From: an uncultured cyanobacterium
GTDB taxonomy: Bacteria; Cyanobacteriota; Cyanobacteriia; Cyanobacteriales; Nostocaceae
NCBI GenBank assembly: GCA_963706595.1
Contig: OY970166.1
Location: 5,024,001 to 5,088,000 of the forward strand
DNA length: 64,000 nucleotides
Direction of reading: 5' to 3'
The position numbers and the translations under genes are program-made. Positions 1 to 9,511 of this stretch are shown here, in pieces. The notes beneath the pieces were generated by a model. The model did not search any database. It was not told the origin of the DNA and worked only from the letters and a program-made list of their open reading frames with translations. Every line of letters starts with the position of its first letter. The stretch's first letter is position 1.

Positions 1-274
1 CAACATCATTGGTCGCGTTGGGTTGCGCTGCGCTTAACCCAACCTACGTCTAATGCACTACTTTAAGCTTGCCACGCCACTACAAACAAGGATTTGGAAT
101 AATTTAATAATTTGTGTTGTGTACACGCTAGTCCCATGCTCAGGTAGGAGCCAGAATCACACAGCGTTTAAGTAAGTTGGCAAGAACAATTTTCACTAGG
201 TGGTGAGAAATATTTTTGCCCACCGACTTTGCATGACTTTGGATTTCTGGCTAATTAGTGCATTGCATTTATAT

Positions 275-472
275 TTAACAGTTATGAAACAATGTTTCTA
301 AATATACACGGGCAGCGCGGCGATCGCTCTCGCCATTTTGAAGTAAAAACAAAGACAAGGCAGCCGTCAGCACTCGATTTTGATCCCAATCGGGGTGTGC
401 TTCTAAGTAATTTTTAAGGGATTCATCTAGTGTTTCGGGAATTTCTGTAAAGATACTAACTGTTGCGTTCAT
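275..472 (-). CDS. DUF2811 family small protein
   Basis: Motif EIPETLDESLKNYLEAHPDWDQNRVLTAALSLFLLQNG resembles this cyanobacterial family; ATG at 472 preferred over the upstream TTG. Confidence 0.75.
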   Translation of the reverse strand: MNATVSIFTEIPETLDESLKNYLEAHPDWDQNRVLTAALSLFLLQNGESDRRAARVYLETLFHNC

Positions 473-915
473 GAGTTTTTCCTTCTCTGAGGTCAATCAA
501 GAGAGACAAGTTGCTTCCAGTGATGCGGAATGTGGGTTACATAGTCCTGCCTTTAACTGACAATTTACACCAGCCTCTAAGGTGATTTTTGGTGTCAATG
601 GTTGAACAGACTATACAAGCCAGTCGCATCATTGTGCGCCAAGAGGGGGTGGGTTTGTCAATGCTGCGAAATGTTAAATCTGGTGGTATAAAAAACAAAT
701 CCTGACGCAATAATCAGGATTTGCGCCAATTTTTTGTTACGCAACTTCATATAAACTCAGTGACTCAGGCTGCTTGCTATTCTTAATCAACAATCCCCAA
801 TAAAACTGCAACTGCCTATTAGCTCGTAAAACATCTGTGGAAAACTACTAAAATCCCTGTGGAAACCCTGTGGAATTAGTGAGGAAAAATTTAGGTAATG
901 ATAAGAATTACAAAA

Positions 916-1008
916 CATTGGTCATTGGTCATTGGTCATTGGTCATTTGGAAGTTACCGTCTTCTCCCCCCTGCTCCCTGCTCCCTGCTCCCCTGCCTCT
1001 TTCCCCTG
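916..1008. repeat. STRR arrays (CATTGGT)n then (CTCCCTG)n-like
   Basis: Tandem heptamers directly 3' of the hisIE stop codon. Confidence 0.9.
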
Positions 1009-1659
1009 CTATCGCCTACGTTCTTGTAACTTGCGATATACTGAGTTTAAATCCACCTGATGATGTGCTAAGGCAACCAGCGTATGATAGAGTAAATCTG
1101 CAACTTCACCTGCGATCGCATCCTCCTCATCATCCTTAAACGCCATTACTACCTCAGCGCTTTCCTCGCCGATCTTTTTTAAAATTTTGTTATCGCCACC
1201 TGCAAATAACTTACAGGTATAAGAAGTATCCACCGGATTGTCACGGCGATCGCATATCACCTGAAAGACTTGAGATAATGTATCCCCTGGTGGGGCGACA
1301 ATTGTCCCTTCAACTTGATGAAAACAACTACGTTCACCAGTGTGACAGGCAATATCTCCTAGTTGCTCCACTCCAATGAGTAGTGCATCACTATCACAGT
1401 CATAACGGACACTTTGCACTTTTTGAATGTGTCCAGAAGTTGCTCCCTTATGCCATAACTCCTGCCGAGAACGACTCCAAAACCAAGTTTCCCCAGTTTC
1501 TAAAGTCTTTTTTAATGATTCCTGACTCATCCACGCCATCATTAAGACAGTGCCATCCAAATAATCTTGGATAATCGCCGGCACTAAACCCCGGTCATCG
1601 TAGCAAATCTTATCAATAGGAATAGACTGTGGTAGTGAATGCGGATCAGTAGAAAACAT
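1009..1659 (-). CDS. hisIE: bifunctional phosphoribosyl-AMP cyclohydrolase / phosphoribosyl-ATP pyrophosphatase
   Basis: HisI motifs [33 protein letters not shown]; HisE motifs [18 protein letters not shown]; start could be up to 1701. Confidence 0.95.
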
Positions 1660-1752
1660 ACCAGCTAATTTGTTCTCATTAAACATTATTGATGGATTCA
1701 CGATACCATTCTGAATAGAGCATCTGGTATGCTTATTTAAAATTCAACTTGC

Positions 1753-1951
1753 TCATTCAGCTTCAACAAAAGCACTGCTATTTGTAGTAGACTGCATCTT
1801 TACAGCACTTAAGGCTAGTTGGGGGGCTTTAGAAGCTTCTCCATACCAATGGATTGCCGAGTTCAAAGCAGGCCGGTAAAGATCCTGGCAAGCCTGGTGA
1901 TAATTTAGTGCGAATCTGTAAAAGCAAGCCTTCATCGGACTTGCATAACAT
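1753..1951 (-). pseudogene. ChaB-family gene with apparent +1 frameshift
   Basis: ATG at 1951 gives MLCKSDEGLLLQIRTKLS; the ChaB-like QDLYRPALNSAIHWYG continues in another frame; the span is 199 nt (3n+1). Confidence 0.6.
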
Positions 1952-2058
1952 ATTGTTATTTTTCTGGTTGGGATAACGCTATAAGGTAGAATTTCTCAAC
2001 AGTTTTTAACCCTATCCTAAGACAGAGCTTTTTATTTCCCATTATTTAGGAGAGAGCC

Positions 2059-3357
2059 TTGGTAAATACCACAATTAAAACCACAAAATCACAAGAAATT
2101 TTTGCCGCAGCCCAAAATCTCATGCCGGGAGGAGTGAATTCTCCAGTTCGCGCCTTCAAATCGGTTGGCGGGCAACCCATCGTTTTTGATCGAGTTAAAG
2201 ACGCATACATTTGGGATGTAGATGGCAACCAATATATTGATTATGTTGGCACTTGGGGTCCGGCTATTTGTGGTCATGCCCATCCAGAGGTCATCGCAGC
2301 GCTCCATGAAGCCTTAGAAAAAGGCACTAGCTTCGGCGCTCCTTCATTCCTAGAAAATGTTCTGGCAGAAATGGTAATTGATGCCGTTCCTAGCATTGAA
2401 ATGGTCAGATTTGTGAATTCCGGCACCGAAGCTTGTATGGCAGTGCTGCGGTTAATGCGGGCTTTCACAAACAGAGAGAAAATCATTAAGTTTGAAGGTT
2501 GTTACCACGGTCACGCTGATACATTCCTCGTCAAGGCTGGTTCTGGTGTAGCCACACTGGGTTTACCCGATTCGCCAGGAGTCCCCAAATCATCAACCAT
2601 CACTACCCTCACAGCTCCCTACAATGACTTGGAAGCAGTGAAAGTCTTGTTGGAACAAAACCGCGACGAGATAGCTGGGGTGATTCTGGAGCCAGTAGTT
2701 GGCAATGCTGGATTTATTACCCCGGATGCTGGTTTTCTAGAAGGTTTACGAGAACTTACCCATGAACATGGGGCTTTGCTAGTCTTTGACGAAGTAATGA
2801 CAGGTTTTCGGATTGCTTATGGTGGCGCTCAGGAAAAATTTGGTGTCACACCAGACTTAACAACCTTGGGTAAGGTTATTGGTGGAGGCTTGCCAGTGGG
2901 AGCCTACGGTGGTCGTCGGGATATTATGTCAATGATTGCTCCCGCAGGCCCTGTGTATCAAGCGGGAACTCTTTCGGGTAATCCCTTAGCAATGACGGCT
3001 GGGATTAAAACCCTGGAATTGTTACAAAGACCTGGAACTTATGAGTATCTAGATCAAATTACTCAGAAGTTAGCAAGTGGTTTAGTACAGATTGCCCAAG
3101 AAACTGGTCATCCAGCTTGTGGTGGTCAAATTAGCGCTATGTTTGGCTTATTCTTTACATCTGGACCAGTGCATAACTACGAAGATGCCAAAAAGTCAGA
3201 TATGGCTAAATTTGGTCGCTTCCATCGCGGGATGTTAGAGCGCGGTGTTTATTTAGCACCTTCTCAGTTTGAAGCTGGTTTTACCTCTTTGGCTCACACT
3301 GAAGCCGATATTGACCAGACTTTAGCAGTTGCACGAGAAGTTCTATCTAGTTTATAA
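2059..3357 (+). CDS. hemL: glutamate-1-semialdehyde 2,1-aminomutase
   Basis: [26 protein letters not shown] and PLP-lysine motif [18 protein letters not shown]. Confidence 0.97.
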
Positions 3358-3363
3358 GTCGTG

Positions 3364-3416
3364 AGTGCTGAGTGATGGGTAGAGAAATAACTCAGGTTTA
3401 GCCAGCACTCAGCACT
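3364..3416 (+). terminator. inverted repeat after hemL (STRR-derived hairpin)
   Basis: AGTGCTGAGTG ... CACTCAGCACT arms. Confidence 0.45.
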
Positions 3417-3495
3417 GTCCGAGGGCATCAGGGAACAACCAGGAAAACCAAGCAGTGATTCTGGGAATCCCCATCCCTCTATAGGTGGAGAGGAT
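3417..3495 (+). mobile_element. IS200/IS605-family right-end remnant (its terminal GTCAA is displaced to 3679-3683)
   Basis: GGAATCCCC..hairpin..GGAGAGGAT(GTCAA) resembles typical IS605/IS1341-group right ends. Confidence 0.6.
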
Positions 3496-3678
3496 TTGAC
3501 ATACCTCCTCTTCCTGAAGGAGAGAGGATTCCTTAACGCTTCATTGGGTTGTGCTATCGAAATAGTCTTACCATCCCTCGACGTTCGTTTAAAGTCTCCC
3601 AATGCCCTGTGGCGACTATATTCAAATTTTACCAGAAAGCCGTCCTAAAAGTACGGGGCTTGTATCCCATTATTCTCG
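3496..3678 (-). mobile_element. 183-bp non-autonomous IS200/IS605-type element (left-end hairpin, omega-RNA-like body, right end ...TCAA)
   Basis: Minus strand reads TTGAC | left end with hairpin GCCCCGTACTTTTAGGACGGC ... GGAATCCTCTCTCCTTCAGGAAGAGGAGGTATGTCAA; no target duplication; no transposase or TnpB ORF. Confidence 0.7.
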
Positions 3679-4240
3679 GTCAACAGCCACAGCCTTTATG
3701 GTTACAGCCTTTGATAGTTTTATGACCTTCAGCACAGCCTTCAGAACAATAGTATTGATCTTCTTTTTTGATGGCATCCTCAAGTGAAACAATACATAAG
3801 CAATTGGGACAAGCGCATTTCATTTGGGTTACGGTAGTCATATTTTTTTTCCATTCATGTTTGAATAATTATTATCTTACAATACCTGAACATATATTCA
3901 ACTATTCTTGATATATTTAAATTTGTGAAGATACAAAGCAGAGAAACTTAAGATGATTTGAGGAAATTACGTATATTTACTGTTGATGCCAAATTAACGG
4001 CCGATTAAAAATCTAAAATGGGTATTTTACACTAAAAGAAGAGCATGGACACTATTTGGGAGTGTAAGTATCAGAAATAATCTGGTTTTAGTAATTATCG
4101 TACGTAATCCTGAGTTAAGTTTAGGAACTCTTCAAAGAATTTACCGCAGAAATCACCTAGCAAGAGTGAATTAGGAGTGCTAATAATTAAAAGAGAGTGT
4201 AACGCTTCGAGTCATTATTCGTGCAGCGAGTTGACAGTGC

Positions 4241-5845
4241 ATGAGCTATTGCTTAAATCCTACCTGCCTTAGTCCAGAAAATCCGGCATATAGCCACAGG
4301 TGCCAGTCATGTGGCTCGCGATTATTATTGCGCGATCGCTATCGGGTGGTCAAACCATTAGGTCAGGGTGGCTTTGGAGCAACATTCTTAGCTCATGATC
4401 AAGCCTTACCAGGAGAACCAAGTTGTGTAATCAAGCAACTACGCCCTTCAGGAACCGCACCACACATCTTGCAAATGGCGCGAGAGTTATTTGAGCGAGA
4501 AGCCAAAACTCTAGGTAGGATTGGGAATCATCCCCAAGTACCAAGGTTACTTGACTATTTTGAAGAGCAAGAACAATTCTATTTAATTCAAGAATATATT
4601 AGTGGTGCAACACTGCAACAAGAGGTCAAACTCAATGGTTTCTTCAGCGAAACTGGAATCAAACAATTTTTGAGCGAGACTTTGCCGTTGGTGCAGTATA
4701 TCCACGAGCAAAAAGTCATTCACCGTGACATCAAGCCAGCCAATTTAATTCGCCGGACTCAAGATGCCAGAATGGTGCTGATTGACTTTGGTGCTGTCAA
4801 AAATCAAGTCAGCCAAGCTGCACTCAATCAATCGGGACAGACAGCATTAACTGCTTATGCCATTGGGACTCCTGGTTTCGCACCTCCAGAGCAAATGGCT
4901 ATGCGTCCAGTCTACGCCAGTGATATCTACGCCTTGGGTGTTACCTGTATTTATCTACTGAGTGGCAAAACTCCTAAAGATTTAGATTACAATCCCAAAA
5001 CAGGCGAGATGATGTGGGAACATTTGGTGCAAGCAAGTGACCATCTAACTACTGTGCTGCGAAAAATGTTAGATGTGTCAGTACGCAATCGCTACCAGTC
5101 AGCCGAAGAAGTACTCAGAGCCTTAGACATAGAACCTTATTTGGAAAGTTTAGCCCAGGGTTTGCTGGTTAAATCTGATTCTAGTGCGAAAGCGCCAACA
5201 TATAGCCGCCCGGAAAATTCTGCTGTTTTATGCAACAACTCTTCTGCTGCTGTTAGTAGTGGAGGTAGTGCAGCACAAATGGCGGCAGCAATTCGAGCTA
5301 GACGAGCCAAGAAAGCCGAAGCTGGGGGAATGGGTCAGGGAACTGTGGCAGGCAAATCAAGAACTTTTGACAGTAATACCAGTGTTACTGCACACACCAA
5401 AAGTTCTCAAGAGCGCAAATTAAATCCCCAAAGTTTACTAACAGCTTATCTCAAGGGAAGACGGGATTTTGCTCTACACAATTTAAGTTTTCTGAAATTA
5501 CCGAACGCTGACTTATCCGAAACAAATTTTCATTCTGCTCAATTCCAAGGTACTAATCTCCAAGGTGCTAATCTTTACAATAGCGACTTTGGCAGAGCTA
5601 GTCTCACTAAAGCAATTCTGAAGGATGCTAATCTGAGTAAAGCCTATTTCCACCATGCTGATTTAGAAGGCGCAGACCTACGAGGCGCAGACCTCAGCGA
5701 TGCCTATCTCCGAGGTGCTAATCTCCGAGGTGCTAATCTGTGTGGTGCTAATCTCACTGGTGCCAAGGTTTCTGATGAGCAAATAGCGTTAGCGAAAACT
5801 AATTGGAAAACAATACGTCCCAATGGTAAACGAGGTCTATTGTAA
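4241..5845 (+). CDS. Ser/Thr protein kinase with C-terminal pentapeptide repeats (SpkB-like)
   Basis: GQGGFG, HRDIKPAN, DFG and PPE motifs; N-terminal Cys motif; A(D/N)LxG repeats. Confidence 0.92.
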   Translation: MSYCLNPTCLSPENPAYSHRCQSCGSRLLLRDRYRVVKPLGQGGFGATFLAHDQALPGEPSCVIKQLRPSGTAPHILQMARELFEREAKTLGRIGNHPQVPRLLDYFEEQEQFYLIQEYISGATLQQEVKLNGFFSETGIKQFLSETLPLVQYIHEQKVIHRDIKPANLIRRTQDARMVLIDFGAVKNQVSQAALNQSGQTALTAYAIGTPGFAPPEQMAMRPVYASDIYALGVTCIYLLSGKTPKDLDYNPKTGEMMWEHLVQASDHLTTVLRKMLDVSVRNRYQSAEEVLRALDIEPYLESLAQGLLVKSDSSAKAPTYSRPENSAVLCNNSSAAVSSGGSAAQMAAAIRARRAKKAEAGGMGQGTVAGKSRTFDSNTSVTAHTKSSQERKLNPQSLLTAYLKGRRDFALHNLSFLKLPNADLSETNFHSAQFQGTNLQGANLYNSDFGRASLTKAILKDANLSKAYFHHADLEGADLRGADLSDAYLRGANLRGANLCGANLTGAKVSDEQIALAKTNWKTIRPNGKRGLL

Positions 5846-5852
5846 TTTCAAA

Positions 5853-5890
5853 TACAAAAGACTGAACCTATATCAGTCCAGTCTTTTGTA
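5853..5890 (+). terminator. intrinsic terminator-like hairpin
   Basis: TACAAAAGACTG ... CAGTCTTTTGTA just after the kinase stop. Confidence 0.6.
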
Positions 5891-5967
5891 GGAACGCATT
5901 CTTTTACAGCACATTTCATCTGAGTGAGGTACACAAGGGGGGTCATGATGCCCACCCCACAAGATTT

Positions 5968-6157
5968 TAGAACTTACGCACTTTACAAATTAATCAGGGT
6001 ATGCTTTCAATAAAATAGGTCGTTTCAGACTTTTATCCCCGATTATTTTGATTGTAAATAGACCAGCATTGTAGGGGTTTAGCATTGCTAAACCCTGACG
6101 AAAGATATGGTTTTTGACAATACATATTTAATATTAATTGTCAATGCGTAACTTCTA
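5968..6157. mobile_element. 190-bp MITE, copy 1
   Basis: Terminal inverted repeats TAGAACTTACGCA / TGCGTAACTTCTA; near-identical copy at 54353-54542. Confidence 0.85.
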
Positions 6158-6284
6158 AATTTATAGTATTATAGCAACCGCTAAGGTGCTTAGGACAAAA
6201 ACAGATTATAAAACCCTTGTAATTCAGGAGTTTTAAGCCTGCCCCCTGCTATAAAATGTGTGGCGTTGCTGAAACCAAGTTAGG

Positions 6285-6314
6285 TGTAGAGACATGACAT
6301 TTCACGTCTCTACA
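6285..6314. repeat. GTAG-type REP-like palindrome (TGTAGAGAC...GTCTCTACA family)
   Basis: Other copies at 24548, 27837, 50277, 52903, 54300 and inside ORFs at 23043 and 26119. Confidence 0.85.
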
Positions 6315-6324
6315 GGGGTTTTGA

Positions 6325-7398
6325 CTATTCTTCTTCTTCTAATTCAACTTCTTCTTCTTCCTGATTGGCTTTGGCTACAGAGTTAGCAGAAACAACAGCC
6401 CCCATATCTAGCTTTTGCCGCACCAGTTCCTTAATTTCGGCAGTAAATTCGGGCTTTTCTTCGAGGTATTTGATAGCGTTATCTCGACCTTGGGAAATGT
6501 TATCACCGTTATAACTGTACCAGGCTCCTTTGCGAACAATAACGGCTGTTTCTTCTGCTAAGTCCACCAGACAGCCCAAGGTGGAAATTCCTTTACCAAA
6601 GATAATGTCAAATTCCGCGATTCTAAAGGGCGGTGCAACTTTATTTTTGGCGACTTTGACTTTGACTCGGTTCCCAAATTCTTCTGTGCCTTTTTTCAAG
6701 GTTTGAATCCGGCGAATATCCAGGCGGACTGAGGCGTAAAACTTCAAGGCGTTACCGCCAGTTGTAGTTTCTGGGCTACCGTAAGTAATACCGATTTTTT
6801 GCCGTAACTGGTTGATGAAAATAACTGTGCAGCCAGATTTACCTATATTACCAGTGATTTTACGGAGGGCTTGGCTCATTAACCGGGCTTGAAGACCAAC
6901 GTGGATATCACCCATATCACCTTCAATTTCCGCACGAGGTACTAGTGCTGCTACTGAGTCAATGACGACAATATCAACTGCGGCGGAGCGCACTAGCTGA
7001 TCGACAATTTCTAAAGCCGATTCGCCGGTATCAGGTTGGGAAACTAGCAAATTTTCAATATCTACACCCAAAGCCGCCGCATAGGTAGGATCAAGGGCGT
7101 GTTCAGCATCAACGAAGGCTGCAACACCGCCATTTTTTTGCACTTCTGCGAGGGCGTGTAGGGCGACTGTGGTTTTACCAGAACTTTCTGGCCCATAAAT
7201 TTCAATTACTCGTCCTTTGGGTAGTCCTCCGCCCAATGCTAAATCTAAGGTGAGCGCCCCTGTGGAAATTGTCTCTACTCGCATCCGGGTAGCATCGCCC
7301 AGGCGCATAATTGCTCCTTTACCGAAGCTGCGCTCAATCTGGTTGAGTACGATATTTAATGCTTTTTCTTTGCCAGAAGTATCTGTGTTAATAGCCAT
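6325..7398 (-). CDS. recA: recombinase A
   Basis: GPESSGKTT Walker A, DSVAAL and [14 protein letters not shown] signature. Confidence 0.99.
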
Positions 7399-7460
7399 TA
7401 GGGACCTCTAAATATAGGAAGTTATATGGATGTCAGGAATCTTGGGCTGGGAGTCTGAGG

Positions 7461-7480
7461 AGAACAGATATACTATTGTA
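7461..7480 (-). promoter_or_regulatory. cyanobacterial LexA box adjoining the recA -10 element
   Basis: Minus strand TACAAT followed by AGTATATCTGTTCT, one mismatch to the RGTAC-N3-DGTWCB consensus. Confidence 0.8.
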
Positions 7481-7632
7481 ACCAGAATTTTCTAGAATAG
7501 AACTTTTAAAACAGAAAGGTGACTAAATCGTTATGCGATCGCTCTCAAATTAGGTGAGCAATACTACATAATTATAGGACAATTTTTTAACTCCAGAGCT
7601 ACGCAGACCAAACAAGACTTGAAGCTATTATC

Positions 7633-7825
7633 AGGCGATCGCTTGAATTTGACTACCTCCCAAAAAGCTGAGATTTTCTAGTTTAGACGAAAGCAAAGTG
7701 GTTTATTGGCTATTTATCTGCGACTAACTCCAGTTTACAGTCAAGCGCTCCACTGGCTAGGAGTAAGTTATGGAGAGCTTGAAGATTGTCAAGTTTTGTA
7801 TACAAAACCAGTGAGCATCTGTCCC
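7633..7825 (+). repeat. 193-bp dispersed repeat, copy A
   Basis: Ungapped alignment to the reverse complement of 39221-39413, about 31 mismatches by manual count. Confidence 0.9.
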
Positions 7826-7955
7826 TGTTTAAATCTTTCAGCCAACTGACGTTGAGAGCCTTCCTTTGTGAAGCAAGCTATAATCACACGACGACGCAAA
7901 TCACCTGAGTCCGATACTGGCATCGAATCTAACAATTACTCCTTTTTGAAATCGC

Positions 7956-8441
7956 CTAAATTCCTAGAACCTTTTTCAGGTTCTGCACAATTAATTGGGG
8001 TGGCTCAGAAACATCTACACATATAGCGTCATCTGGCTCCTCAAGGGCATCTAACTGGCTGCTGAGGAGTTTTTCTGACATAAAATGATTTTGCCGTCCG
8101 ATGAGTCGCTGTTGGAGCAAATCTAAACTGCCGTGGAGGTAAATTAGCTTGATGCATTCAGCATTTAATACTAAGTATTGGCGATAATCGGCTTTGAGTG
8201 CAGAACAGGCTAATACTACATTTTCGTTTTCTTTTAACCACAGTGCGATCGCTGTTTGCAAATCTTTCAGCCAAGGCTTTCTATCGGCATCATTGAGGGG
8301 AATACCCAGGCGCATTTTTTCAATGTTATCTATGGAATGAAATTCATCAGCGTCTTTAAATTCCCAGTCTAAGGCATCGGCTAATAGTTTACCAATTGTG
8401 GTTTTGCCGGCACCGGAGACACCCATGATGATAATTATCAT
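7956..8441 (-). CDS. gntK: gluconokinase
   Basis: MGVSGAGKT, DADEFH, PLNDADRKPWL, ACSALK, HFM..LLSSQ motifs. Confidence 0.92.
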   Translation of the reverse strand: MIIIIMGVSGAGKTTIGKLLADALDWEFKDADEFHSIDNIEKMRLGIPLNDADRKPWLKDLQTAIALWLKENENVVLACSALKADYRQYLVLNAECIKLIYLHGSLDLLQQRLIGRQNHFMSEKLLSSQLDALEEPDDAICVDVSEPPQLIVQNLKKVLGI

Positions 8442-8496
8442 TGTTTTTAACGCAGAGGTACGCGGAGGTAAGCGCGAAGGTACGCAAAGAGGAGAA

Positions 8497-9222
8497 TTAA
8501 ATTTTGAGCTTTGCTAAACCTATATAGCGTATGCCTTCTGGAGATACATCAAACCGACAGGGTAATACTTCTAAGCCGAGTGCGATCGCACTTCGCAATA
8601 GTTTACCATATACTGGGTCTGTAATATCACCAGGGGCAAATTCGGTACAATCACTCCGATTGATGAAGTACAACATCACCGCACGAGTTTGGGGTAAAAG
8701 TGCTGTTAATTCCCGTAAATGCTTTTGTCCTCTGGTGGTTTCGGTGTCGGGAAATAGGGCTAAACTCCCTTGCGCCCAAGTTGTATTTTTGACTTCTAAA
8801 TAAATTGGGCGTTCTTCGTCGCTACCTGTCAAGAAAAAATCTACCCGACTTTTTTTATCTTGTCCATAAACTACTTCGCCTTTAATTTGGGTATAGTCTC
8901 CCAATTCGGGAAAGAGGTATTTTGCTAATGCTAGTTTTATTATGCGATTGGGTAACATGGTATTCACTCCTACCCAAGTTGGTTGGTTATCATGTACCTG
9001 AATCAATTCTAAAGTGTAACCCAATTTGCGCTGGGGATTATCACTTTTAGACACTTGCACTGCACTACCAAGAGTAGATACTCCCGTCATTGGCCCTGTG
9101 TTAGGACAATGTGCTGTAACTATTTCGCCAGAATCAAGTTGAACATCAGCAAAAAATCTTTTGTAGCGCTTGAGTAGTATTCCCGAATATAGAGGTGGAT
9201 AGTTGTAAAGCCAGTCAATCAT
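8497..9222 (-). CDS. sfsA: DNA/RNA nuclease SfsA
   Basis: KRYKRFFADV, AHCPNTGPM, SRVDF, LEVK, FPDTETTRGQKHL; start placed at MIDWLY. Confidence 0.93.
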   Translation of the reverse strand: MIDWLYNYPPLYSGILLKRYKRFFADVQLDSGEIVTAHCPNTGPMTGVSTLGSAVQVSKSDNPQRKLGYTLELIQVHDNQPTWVGVNTMLPNRIIKLALAKYLFPELGDYTQIKGEVVYGQDKKSRVDFFLTGSDEERPIYLEVKNTTWAQGSLALFPDTETTRGQKHLRELTALLPQTRAVMLYFINRSDCTEFAPGDITDPVYGKLLRSAIALGLEVLPCRFDVSPEGIRYIGLAKLKI

Positions 9223-9511
9223 AAGAAGTGCTGAGTGATAAGTGATGAAACCGCCCACAATGGGAGAGTTATTTAGCATCCCAGAGGGGTTTGATCAAAA
9301 CTGTTTGCTGTTAGTGAATATACATTGATTTTTATCCCTTTGCCTTTATCGATAAATATCTTTCCAAAGGTGAATGAATTACATATCACAATTAGTCAAT
9401 TTATGTAGTCAATTTGACGACAATTTAATAAACAGCCGCATATACTCAGTAATATAAGCCTCTCATCCAGCAACAGGGGGGAGGATTGAAATATATAAGC
9501 AGGTAAATCCT

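Follow-up and report, generated by a model that had tools for sequence, protein, structure and literature searches.

Among the closest described relatives of the element reported here are PATEs, which are protein-less elements with transposon ends, and the parts of one report that bear on them (10.1101/2023.03.14.532601) describe omega-RNA-bearing PATEs together with a homing role for the guides of IS605 elements. A PATE with IStron ends and activity in trans is described in a portion of a second report (10.1101/2023.11.20.567912), and the pertinent section of a third (PMC10691335) states that standalone omega-RNAs act in trans and that their biological role is unknown. For the TnpB protein of ISDra2, approximately 12 bp of TAM-proximal pairing is needed, and double mismatches in this region abolish cutting, as stated in a passage that covers double rather than single mismatches (PMC10097598).

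Here we describe an element from a cyanobacterial genome (G000) that was examined within a window of 64,000 nucleotides, this being the whole stretch of DNA that was analysed (C1:5024001-5088000). The locus of interest lies between an ORF of 432 aa on the plus strand (2059..3357 in the ORF list), a putative hemL gene for GSA aminotransferase, and an ORF of 534 aa that starts at 4241. Directly after the upstream gene is an 18-bp inverted repeat (3364..3416) that may serve as a terminator on either strand, and similar repeats are present at this site in congeners. On balance, we judge that the element is probably a gene-less IS200/IS605 mini-element, one of ten in its genome, that is moved in trans by TnpA, carries its own predicted omega-RNA, and landed by chance in a leftover right end of another transposon family.

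The element spans 183 bp (3496..3678) on the minus strand, where it is located directly 3' of TTGAC (3683-3679), terminates with TCAA at 3496, and lacks a target duplication. Its excision in silico reunites GGTGGAGAGGAT with GTCAA, the intact junction that a sequence-only reading of this DNA had reconstructed in this manner, and the insert is missing at the orthologous site in 10 of 10 congeneric genomes. The TAM (TTGAC, 3679..3683 on the minus strand) is the reverse complement of the GTCAA that terminates the host right end. Nine full copies and one right-end-only copy of the cassette are found in the genome with unrelated flanks, which confirms the boundaries given in the earlier description of a 183-bp minus-strand insert without duplication. 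TGAC is present upstream of all nine full copies (TTGAC for five, CTGAC for three and ATGAC for one), no target duplication is evident, and eight of the nine end with TCAA. The left end (3636..3678, minus strand) includes a subterminal hairpin at ~3637-3661, whereas the right end consists of a hairpin plus a TATGTCAA terminus. Thus, the left-end hairpin, the extended -10 and the TCAA-terminated right end noticed earlier can be placed at ~3637-3661, 3634-3626 and 3496, respectively. The element contains no ORF of at least 60 aa, and a generic promoter and terminator scan with a program that requires a -35 called nothing within it. The DNA hairpin energies of the left and right ends by themselves are not significant (z -0.65 and -1.43; z -0.4 to -1.4 across the DNA hairpins folded).

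Profile searches of the genome yielded 39 TnpB-domain matches and six Y1 TnpA matches. Two autonomous elements, with tnpB at C1:449500 and C1:676011, each follow TTGAC and carry open frames for a TnpA of 132 aa and a TnpB of 405 aa. The RuvC D, E and D motifs of the cognate TnpB can be read from its sequence, and the protein passes NF040570 and is homologous to solved TnpB chains (E 1e-56). Over the left end of the element with tnpB starting at C1:449500, 45 of 48 nucleotides (TAM included) are identical to those of the cassette. The search for tnpA/tnpB elements that share the cassette ends thus returned two in the same genome, and the earlier label of 'orphan' must be replaced by that of a multi-copy family (nine full copies and one partial) with two autonomous partners. 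The view that this is a TnpB-less IS605-type mini-element is upheld by the ends, the copies and the absence of a protein gene. The cassette is a non-autonomous IS200/IS605 mini-element, or PATE, whose ends are common to an autonomous tnpA element, and the shared ends and dispersed near-identical copies make it likely that TnpA excises and integrates it in trans.

Several other features of the copies deserve mention. Five of the nine carry a short repeat of ~23-28 nt within the loop of the left-end hairpin (C1:1428461, 4847235, 2015115, 1098255 and 350074), at a place that corresponds to window position 3651-3652. Two right-end-only insertions located after TTGAC in the genome (C1:3728624-3728722 and C1:3115823-3115918), of which one derives from the cassette and the other from its autonomous relative, begin at nearly the same point of the scaffold, just past TTAAA, and these near-identical start points suggest single-ended transposition from a cryptic cut site. 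In a congeneric genome (G004), 26 matches to our covariance model were found on several contigs, 11 of them with the identical score of 133.2 bits, which suggests a recent burst of the cassette.

The portion of the element from 3496 to 3617 (minus strand) can be modelled as a 122-nt omega-RNA scaffold that consists of stem 1, a predicted pseudoknot (GGCAU/AUGUC), stems 2 and 3, and the right-end hairpin (~3506-3528). The body aligns to tnpB 3' ends as had been supposed, and among the 39 in this genome the best matches are those at C1:449500 and C1:676011 (scores 88 and 83; next 54.5), with 81 of 122 scaffold positions (66%) identical to the C1:449500 element. An exact right-end pattern was matched by 103 loci in cyanobacterial genomes and 59 in metagenomes, no match was found among viral contigs, and a plasmid search gave one match, to an autonomous relative. 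The pattern was built from cassette-specific letters, and the 3' third of the scaffold is partly fixed by it. Therefore, its matches define a separate lineage, of which an unseen autonomous form is possible. Among 118 entries examined with one TnpB query, there was no tnpB frame that runs into the scaffold, and four had a separate tnpB match located 313-1398 nt away. A TnpB gene whose own 3' end bears a cassette-type scaffold was also looked for in these 118 entries and was not found.

Structural conservation was assessed with an alignment of 53 scaffolds, comprising that of the window and 52 of 76 distinct others, from which near-duplicates, copies with large insertions and poorly anchored copies were omitted. 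Across these representatives, 96.5% of cells in a six-helix structure pair versus 89.4% after shuffling, and 9 of 29 pairs exhibit two-sided changes. Covariation reaches a score of 0.220, as against 0.086 for shuffled alignments (0/500), with slid controls at 0.059 or below. In helix 4, which lies outside what the search pattern fixed, two-sided changes are seen in five of six pairs. There is almost no variation in stem 1 or the pseudoknot, and covariation is therefore silent on both, which are predicted only by their likeness to the ISDra2 architecture. When the covariance model is applied to the genome, the 10 cassettes come first (107-145 bits), the two autonomous ends follow directly (91 and 89.5 bits), and host-like tnpB ends score no more than 25 bits. 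When folded as a single sequence, the element did not stand out from its shuffles (z = +0.60; 141 of 200 fold equally well), and so the 'hairpin-rich' character proposed for the body is not borne out in this way; structure is visible through covariation only. No Rfam family matches the element or its longer variants. Assignment of 3496-3617 as a candidate omega-RNA scaffold of the TnpB clade present in this genome, and thus as a putative standalone omega-RNA, is well supported by these comparisons.

Judged from their sequences, the cassettes are a distinct cyanobacterial lineage with a conserved, predicted extended -10 box between the left end and the scaffold. Longer variants of ~300 bp (L029, L052, L053, L054, L058, L089 and L099) occur in non-heterocystous cyanobacteria, and these begin with a TTAT-type left end and the -10 box, followed by an extra conserved module of ~120 nt and then the scaffold. 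The module matches nothing in Rfam and was detected in none of the 201 genomes that were sampled, and an 'IscB-like' label considered for it is unsupported on both counts. In other loci (L023, L040, L061, L091, L096, L115 and L276), the same scaffold family is joined to a left end that has TTAT, in place of TTGAC, before it. One of this set is an autonomous element on a plasmid, with a TnpB 67% identical to that of our genome, which implies a TAM switch within the clade.

The distribution of the cassette was compared with that of its presumed partner among 41 genomes, which include relatives that are not independent of one another. Cassette-grade hits (at least 115 bits, not every one verified as protein-less) are present in 17, and close TnpB proteins (at least 80% identity) are full-length in eight of these, broken in four and not found with this query in five. 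None of the 24 genomes that lack cassette-grade hits has a full-length close TnpB, a pattern that fits dependence of the cassette on this TnpB clade. Given that 9 of the 17 have a broken close TnpB or none that was found, cassettes can outlast their partner. TnpB proteins of ~41% identity in genomes without the close clade were considered as hidden partners and rejected, as they have their own, different RNAs (30 bits or below).

Immediately upstream of the scaffold is an extended -10 box, TGGTAAAAT (3626..3634, minus strand), with a predicted start site at ~3617-3620. Of 47 distinct upstream 30-mers that come with a left end, 38 have the consensus TGnTAnnnT ending 4-9 nt ahead of the scaffold (mean 1.15 and maximum 5 after shuffling), a proportion that overstates independence because these 30-mers are related to each other. 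In the window copy, the box occupies 3634-3626 and the first scaffold position is 3617.

Six RNA runs were examined (X1-X6, those of X1-X20 with more than small shares), and four of them, from two studies, yielded contigs that are identical to the window and bridge the 3495/3496 junction, namely X1 (3334-3603), X3 (3445-3682), X4 (3413-3608) and X6 (3442-3596). These contigs carry no strand information, and it was by means of this stretch that the runs had been selected. The other two runs gave contig X2, which carries the flank of another copy, and X5, which stops at 3476. The contigs that cross 3496 show that the nested allele is present in RNA libraries, which is a separate matter from the firing of the predicted promoter; they could stem from residual DNA or from transcripts that run on from the upstream gene. 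The suggestion that the cassette yields an omega-RNA is thus favoured by the scaffold, the conserved -10 box and the contigs across the junction, and it is tempered by the unstranded nature of the contigs and by the selection of runs with this stretch. Contig ends at 3596-3608 were dismissed as a start-site signal, since the copies differ at 3609 and this would interrupt the assembly graph. No other long RNA contig maps to window positions 1-9500, an observation to which the choice of runs gives no evidential weight. Contigs X1 and X2 also join the short repeat of the left-end loop to the flank of this locus and may represent either an allele or an assembly chimera.

The host of the insertion is located at 3422..3495 on the plus strand and is completed by 3679-3683. 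It aligns over ~80 nt with right ends in L213 and L125 and with the 3' end of tnpB at C1:3791584, and it therefore belongs to another IS605-type family. This had been described as an intact IS200/IS605-like right end, which is correct for the tip, but what remains is a fragment of ~75 bp without a left end or tnpB. Of the 10 congeners, a single one (L009, from G004; z 5.8, 0/300 shuffles) has a decayed ortholog of the host at this site, and the other nine failed, including a candidate relic in G007 that was rejected by the shuffle test (38/300). Since the congener with the decayed ortholog is free of the insert, the host fragment likely predates the cassette. More generally, window positions 3358-3690 and the orthologous regions (L002-L011) carry different small repeats in nearly every congener and vary in length from 84 to 361 bp, and this gathering of varied repeats indicates that the intergenic region behaves as a tolerant landing site.

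A right end that finishes in GTCAA reads TTGAC on the opposite strand and is automatically an insertion site, which is why nesting of this kind can arise at all. We estimate that ~24 of the 14,490 TTGAC sites in the genome (0.17%) belong to such right ends, a value that represents the 29 hits of a strict detector minus five considered false on visual inspection (with control end-motifs, 3-7 hits were obtained). This strict count was used as the base rate because a loose detector fires on 150 of the 14,490 sites (1.0%), mostly as false positives. By chance, ten insertions in a single genome would therefore include such a case with odds of ~2%, and ~0.2 events would be expected among 137 flanks, whereas right-end-like sequence is observed at 1 of 137 distinct cassette flanks (the window copy alone) and at none of 23 autonomous-locus flanks. 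Most likely, then, the window cassette landed in the leftover right end of the other family by chance.

A reciprocal arrangement was found in G002 (L181:~410-2240, equivalent to G002:C1:~1305310-1307140), where an autonomous tnpA+tnpB IS605 element is inserted tail-to-tail at the TTGAC within a right end of the cassette family. The predicted guide of that nested element is the right end of the cassette, which is the only full copy in G002. Because two tail-to-tail events are known, a modest bias toward right ends may exist. The stronger proposal, that TnpA favours TTGAC at the right-end hairpins of other elements and that tail-to-tail nesting is a regular route, draws on the independence of these two events and their occurrence at the same TTGAC position. 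It must be set against the flanks of the remaining 136 cassettes and the 23 autonomous loci, none of which is right-end-like, when only ~0.2 events would be expected by chance among 137, and we regard such directed nesting as very improbable.

From the OMEGA biology outlined in part of PMC10691335, the guide of the window copy is predicted to be the 3' flank of the right end, ATCCTCTCCACCTATAGAGG (3476..3495, minus strand), and the unstranded RNA contigs noted above bridge its junction with the scaffold. This guide is the reverse complement of a right end from another family, as had been proposed. The sequence-only reading took this further by suggesting that a TnpB supplied in trans is sent to the right ends of that family, where it would cut or block them. 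Certain data are in keeping with this idea. The two best sites with a TAM and seed in the genome, C1:3791416 (11/12 seed matches, 12/20 overall) and C1:3562668 (10/12 and 13/20), each fall in a genuine right end of a tnpB element, and at the former the mismatch, which affects position 7, would be a U-G wobble. Furthermore, exact matches to the TAM and 12-nt seed occur at five sites, distributed over 4 of the 251 genomes of the family, all five of which are right-end-like, and two of which have full tnpB genes 86-88% identical to the proteins encoded at our best guide sites. Given that TnpB binds TAM sites despite little seed match, according to part of 10.1101/2023.03.14.532601, weak binding or cutting at C1:3791416 is possible. 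Another short fragment that resembles the host right end (C1:188525-188558) is the third-best guide site (9/12).

Other results do not favour such targeting. The search for TTGAC followed by the guide found no exact match to the TAM and 12-nt seed among the 14,490 TTGAC sites of the genome and none in its 10 congeners, and none of 13 guides from the cassette family and its autonomous partners in this genome reaches 12/12. The best site matches at only 12 of 20 positions overall, ~12 bp of TAM-proximal pairing is required for cutting (PMC10097598, in a passage where double mismatches are covered), 57 of 400 random guides taken from TTGAC flanks also reach at least 11/12, and the element at C1:3791416 persists with a 402-aa open frame. 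Nesting in right ends is not enriched (1/137), the host is an old fragment rather than a live element, and in the reciprocal case from G002 the host cassette has no second full copy beside it. Efficient cutting would also constitute self-targeting of the chromosome, which would be hard to reconcile with the persistence of both partners. The claim that the guide cuts or silences sibling elements thus finds no exact target in this genome, and we hold inter-transposon targeting to be improbable. An extension of the same idea is equally doubtful. It posits a spontaneous form of spacer acquisition between transposons, wherein a tail-to-tail landing captures a guide against another family, the window copy binds or weakly cuts C1:3791416 (11/12, one wobble) and exactly matches incoming relatives such as L212 and L216, and the absence of exact targets here and in G002 reflects their past removal.

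It is also conceivable, though unlikely, that the cassette is an inert passenger, mobile by means of TnpA, with an RNA that none of the TnpB proteins encoded in this genome still uses and a guide that is idle. The scaffold is only 66% identical to those of the resident elements, and both cognate TnpB copies carry an in-frame insertion of 10 aa (L144:~720-750, residues ~40-49) that is missing from six homologs. Moreover, cassettes persist in the five genomes without a close TnpB that was found and in the four with a broken one. Nevertheless, compensatory changes and the -10 box have been kept across orders in protein-less copies, which goes beyond what mobility by TnpA needs, and the two cognate tnpB genes in the genome retain open frames.

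We therefore return to a TnpA-mobilized mini-element with its own predicted omega-RNA, for which the following sequence of events can be proposed. The shared ends would be recognized by the Y1 TnpA of an autonomous relative, which would paste the cassette 3' of TTGAC. Transcription would start near 3618, and the RNA would cross the right end into the flank. The resulting omega-RNA would be loaded by the TnpB encoded at C1:449500 or C1:676011, although the 66% scaffold identity and the 10-aa insertion in both TnpB copies count against this predicted step. The sequence matched by its guide would be the cassette's own empty site next to TTGAC, such that, after excision or on an uninserted copy of the chromosome, TnpB could cut this site and recombination could copy the cassette back. 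By analogy with the described systems, homing to its own empty site is the likely role of the guide, and the resemblance to other right ends would then be a by-product of the landing place.

The element in the window probably belongs, without special features, to a class that is already known, rather than serving as a weapon aimed at other transposons. The family nonetheless offers a natural example of a standalone omega-RNA with a predicted promoter that is widespread in cyanobacteria and has TnpA and TnpB partners in the same genome. It could serve as a test case for the role of standalone omega-RNAs, which is called open in the section of PMC10691335 that deals with them, and the covarying alignment provides a 122-nt scaffold model that is absent from Rfam. 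In the unlikely event that the nested guide does cut the ends of the other family, transposons would be acquiring guides against one another, a precursor-like step toward CRISPR adaptation. A partial literature search, which did not extend to supplements that may list such elements, found no report of this cyanobacterial lineage or of right-end nesting as inter-element targeting.

As far as the relevant portions of two reports describe them (10.1101/2023.03.14.532601; PMC10691335), PATEs resemble the cassette in having both ends, no protein gene, a scaffold that ends at the right end, and a guide in the flank. They also need TnpA and TnpB in trans and have autonomous relatives in the same genome. 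The cassette differs from the published PATEs, as covered in those portions, in that its lineage is cyanobacterial and carries a conserved extended -10 box, and in that the window copy lies tail-to-tail within a right-end fragment of another family. The omega-RNA of ISDra2 TnpB, as presented in part of PMC10097598, is similar in scaffold length (116 nt versus 122 nt for the cassette), right-end hairpin and TTGAN-type TAM, and the 5' stem of the cassette is ISDra2-like in that a pseudoknot is predicted between its loop and the final bases that precede the guide. Unlike that system, the cassette uses TTGAC rather than TTGAT as its TAM, its RNA lies outside any coding 3' end of tnpB, and its predicted pseudoknot is invariant. 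The autonomous IS605 elements at C1:449500 and C1:676011 share with the cassette the left end (45/48), the TTGAC TAM and the fold of the scaffold, including what appears by eye to be a swap of GG..CC for CC..GG in the 5' stem. In contrast to these elements, the cassette lacks both genes, is 66% identical in its scaffold, differs in the sequence of its right-end hairpin, and has a -10 box that was not seen at corresponding positions in the autonomous element.
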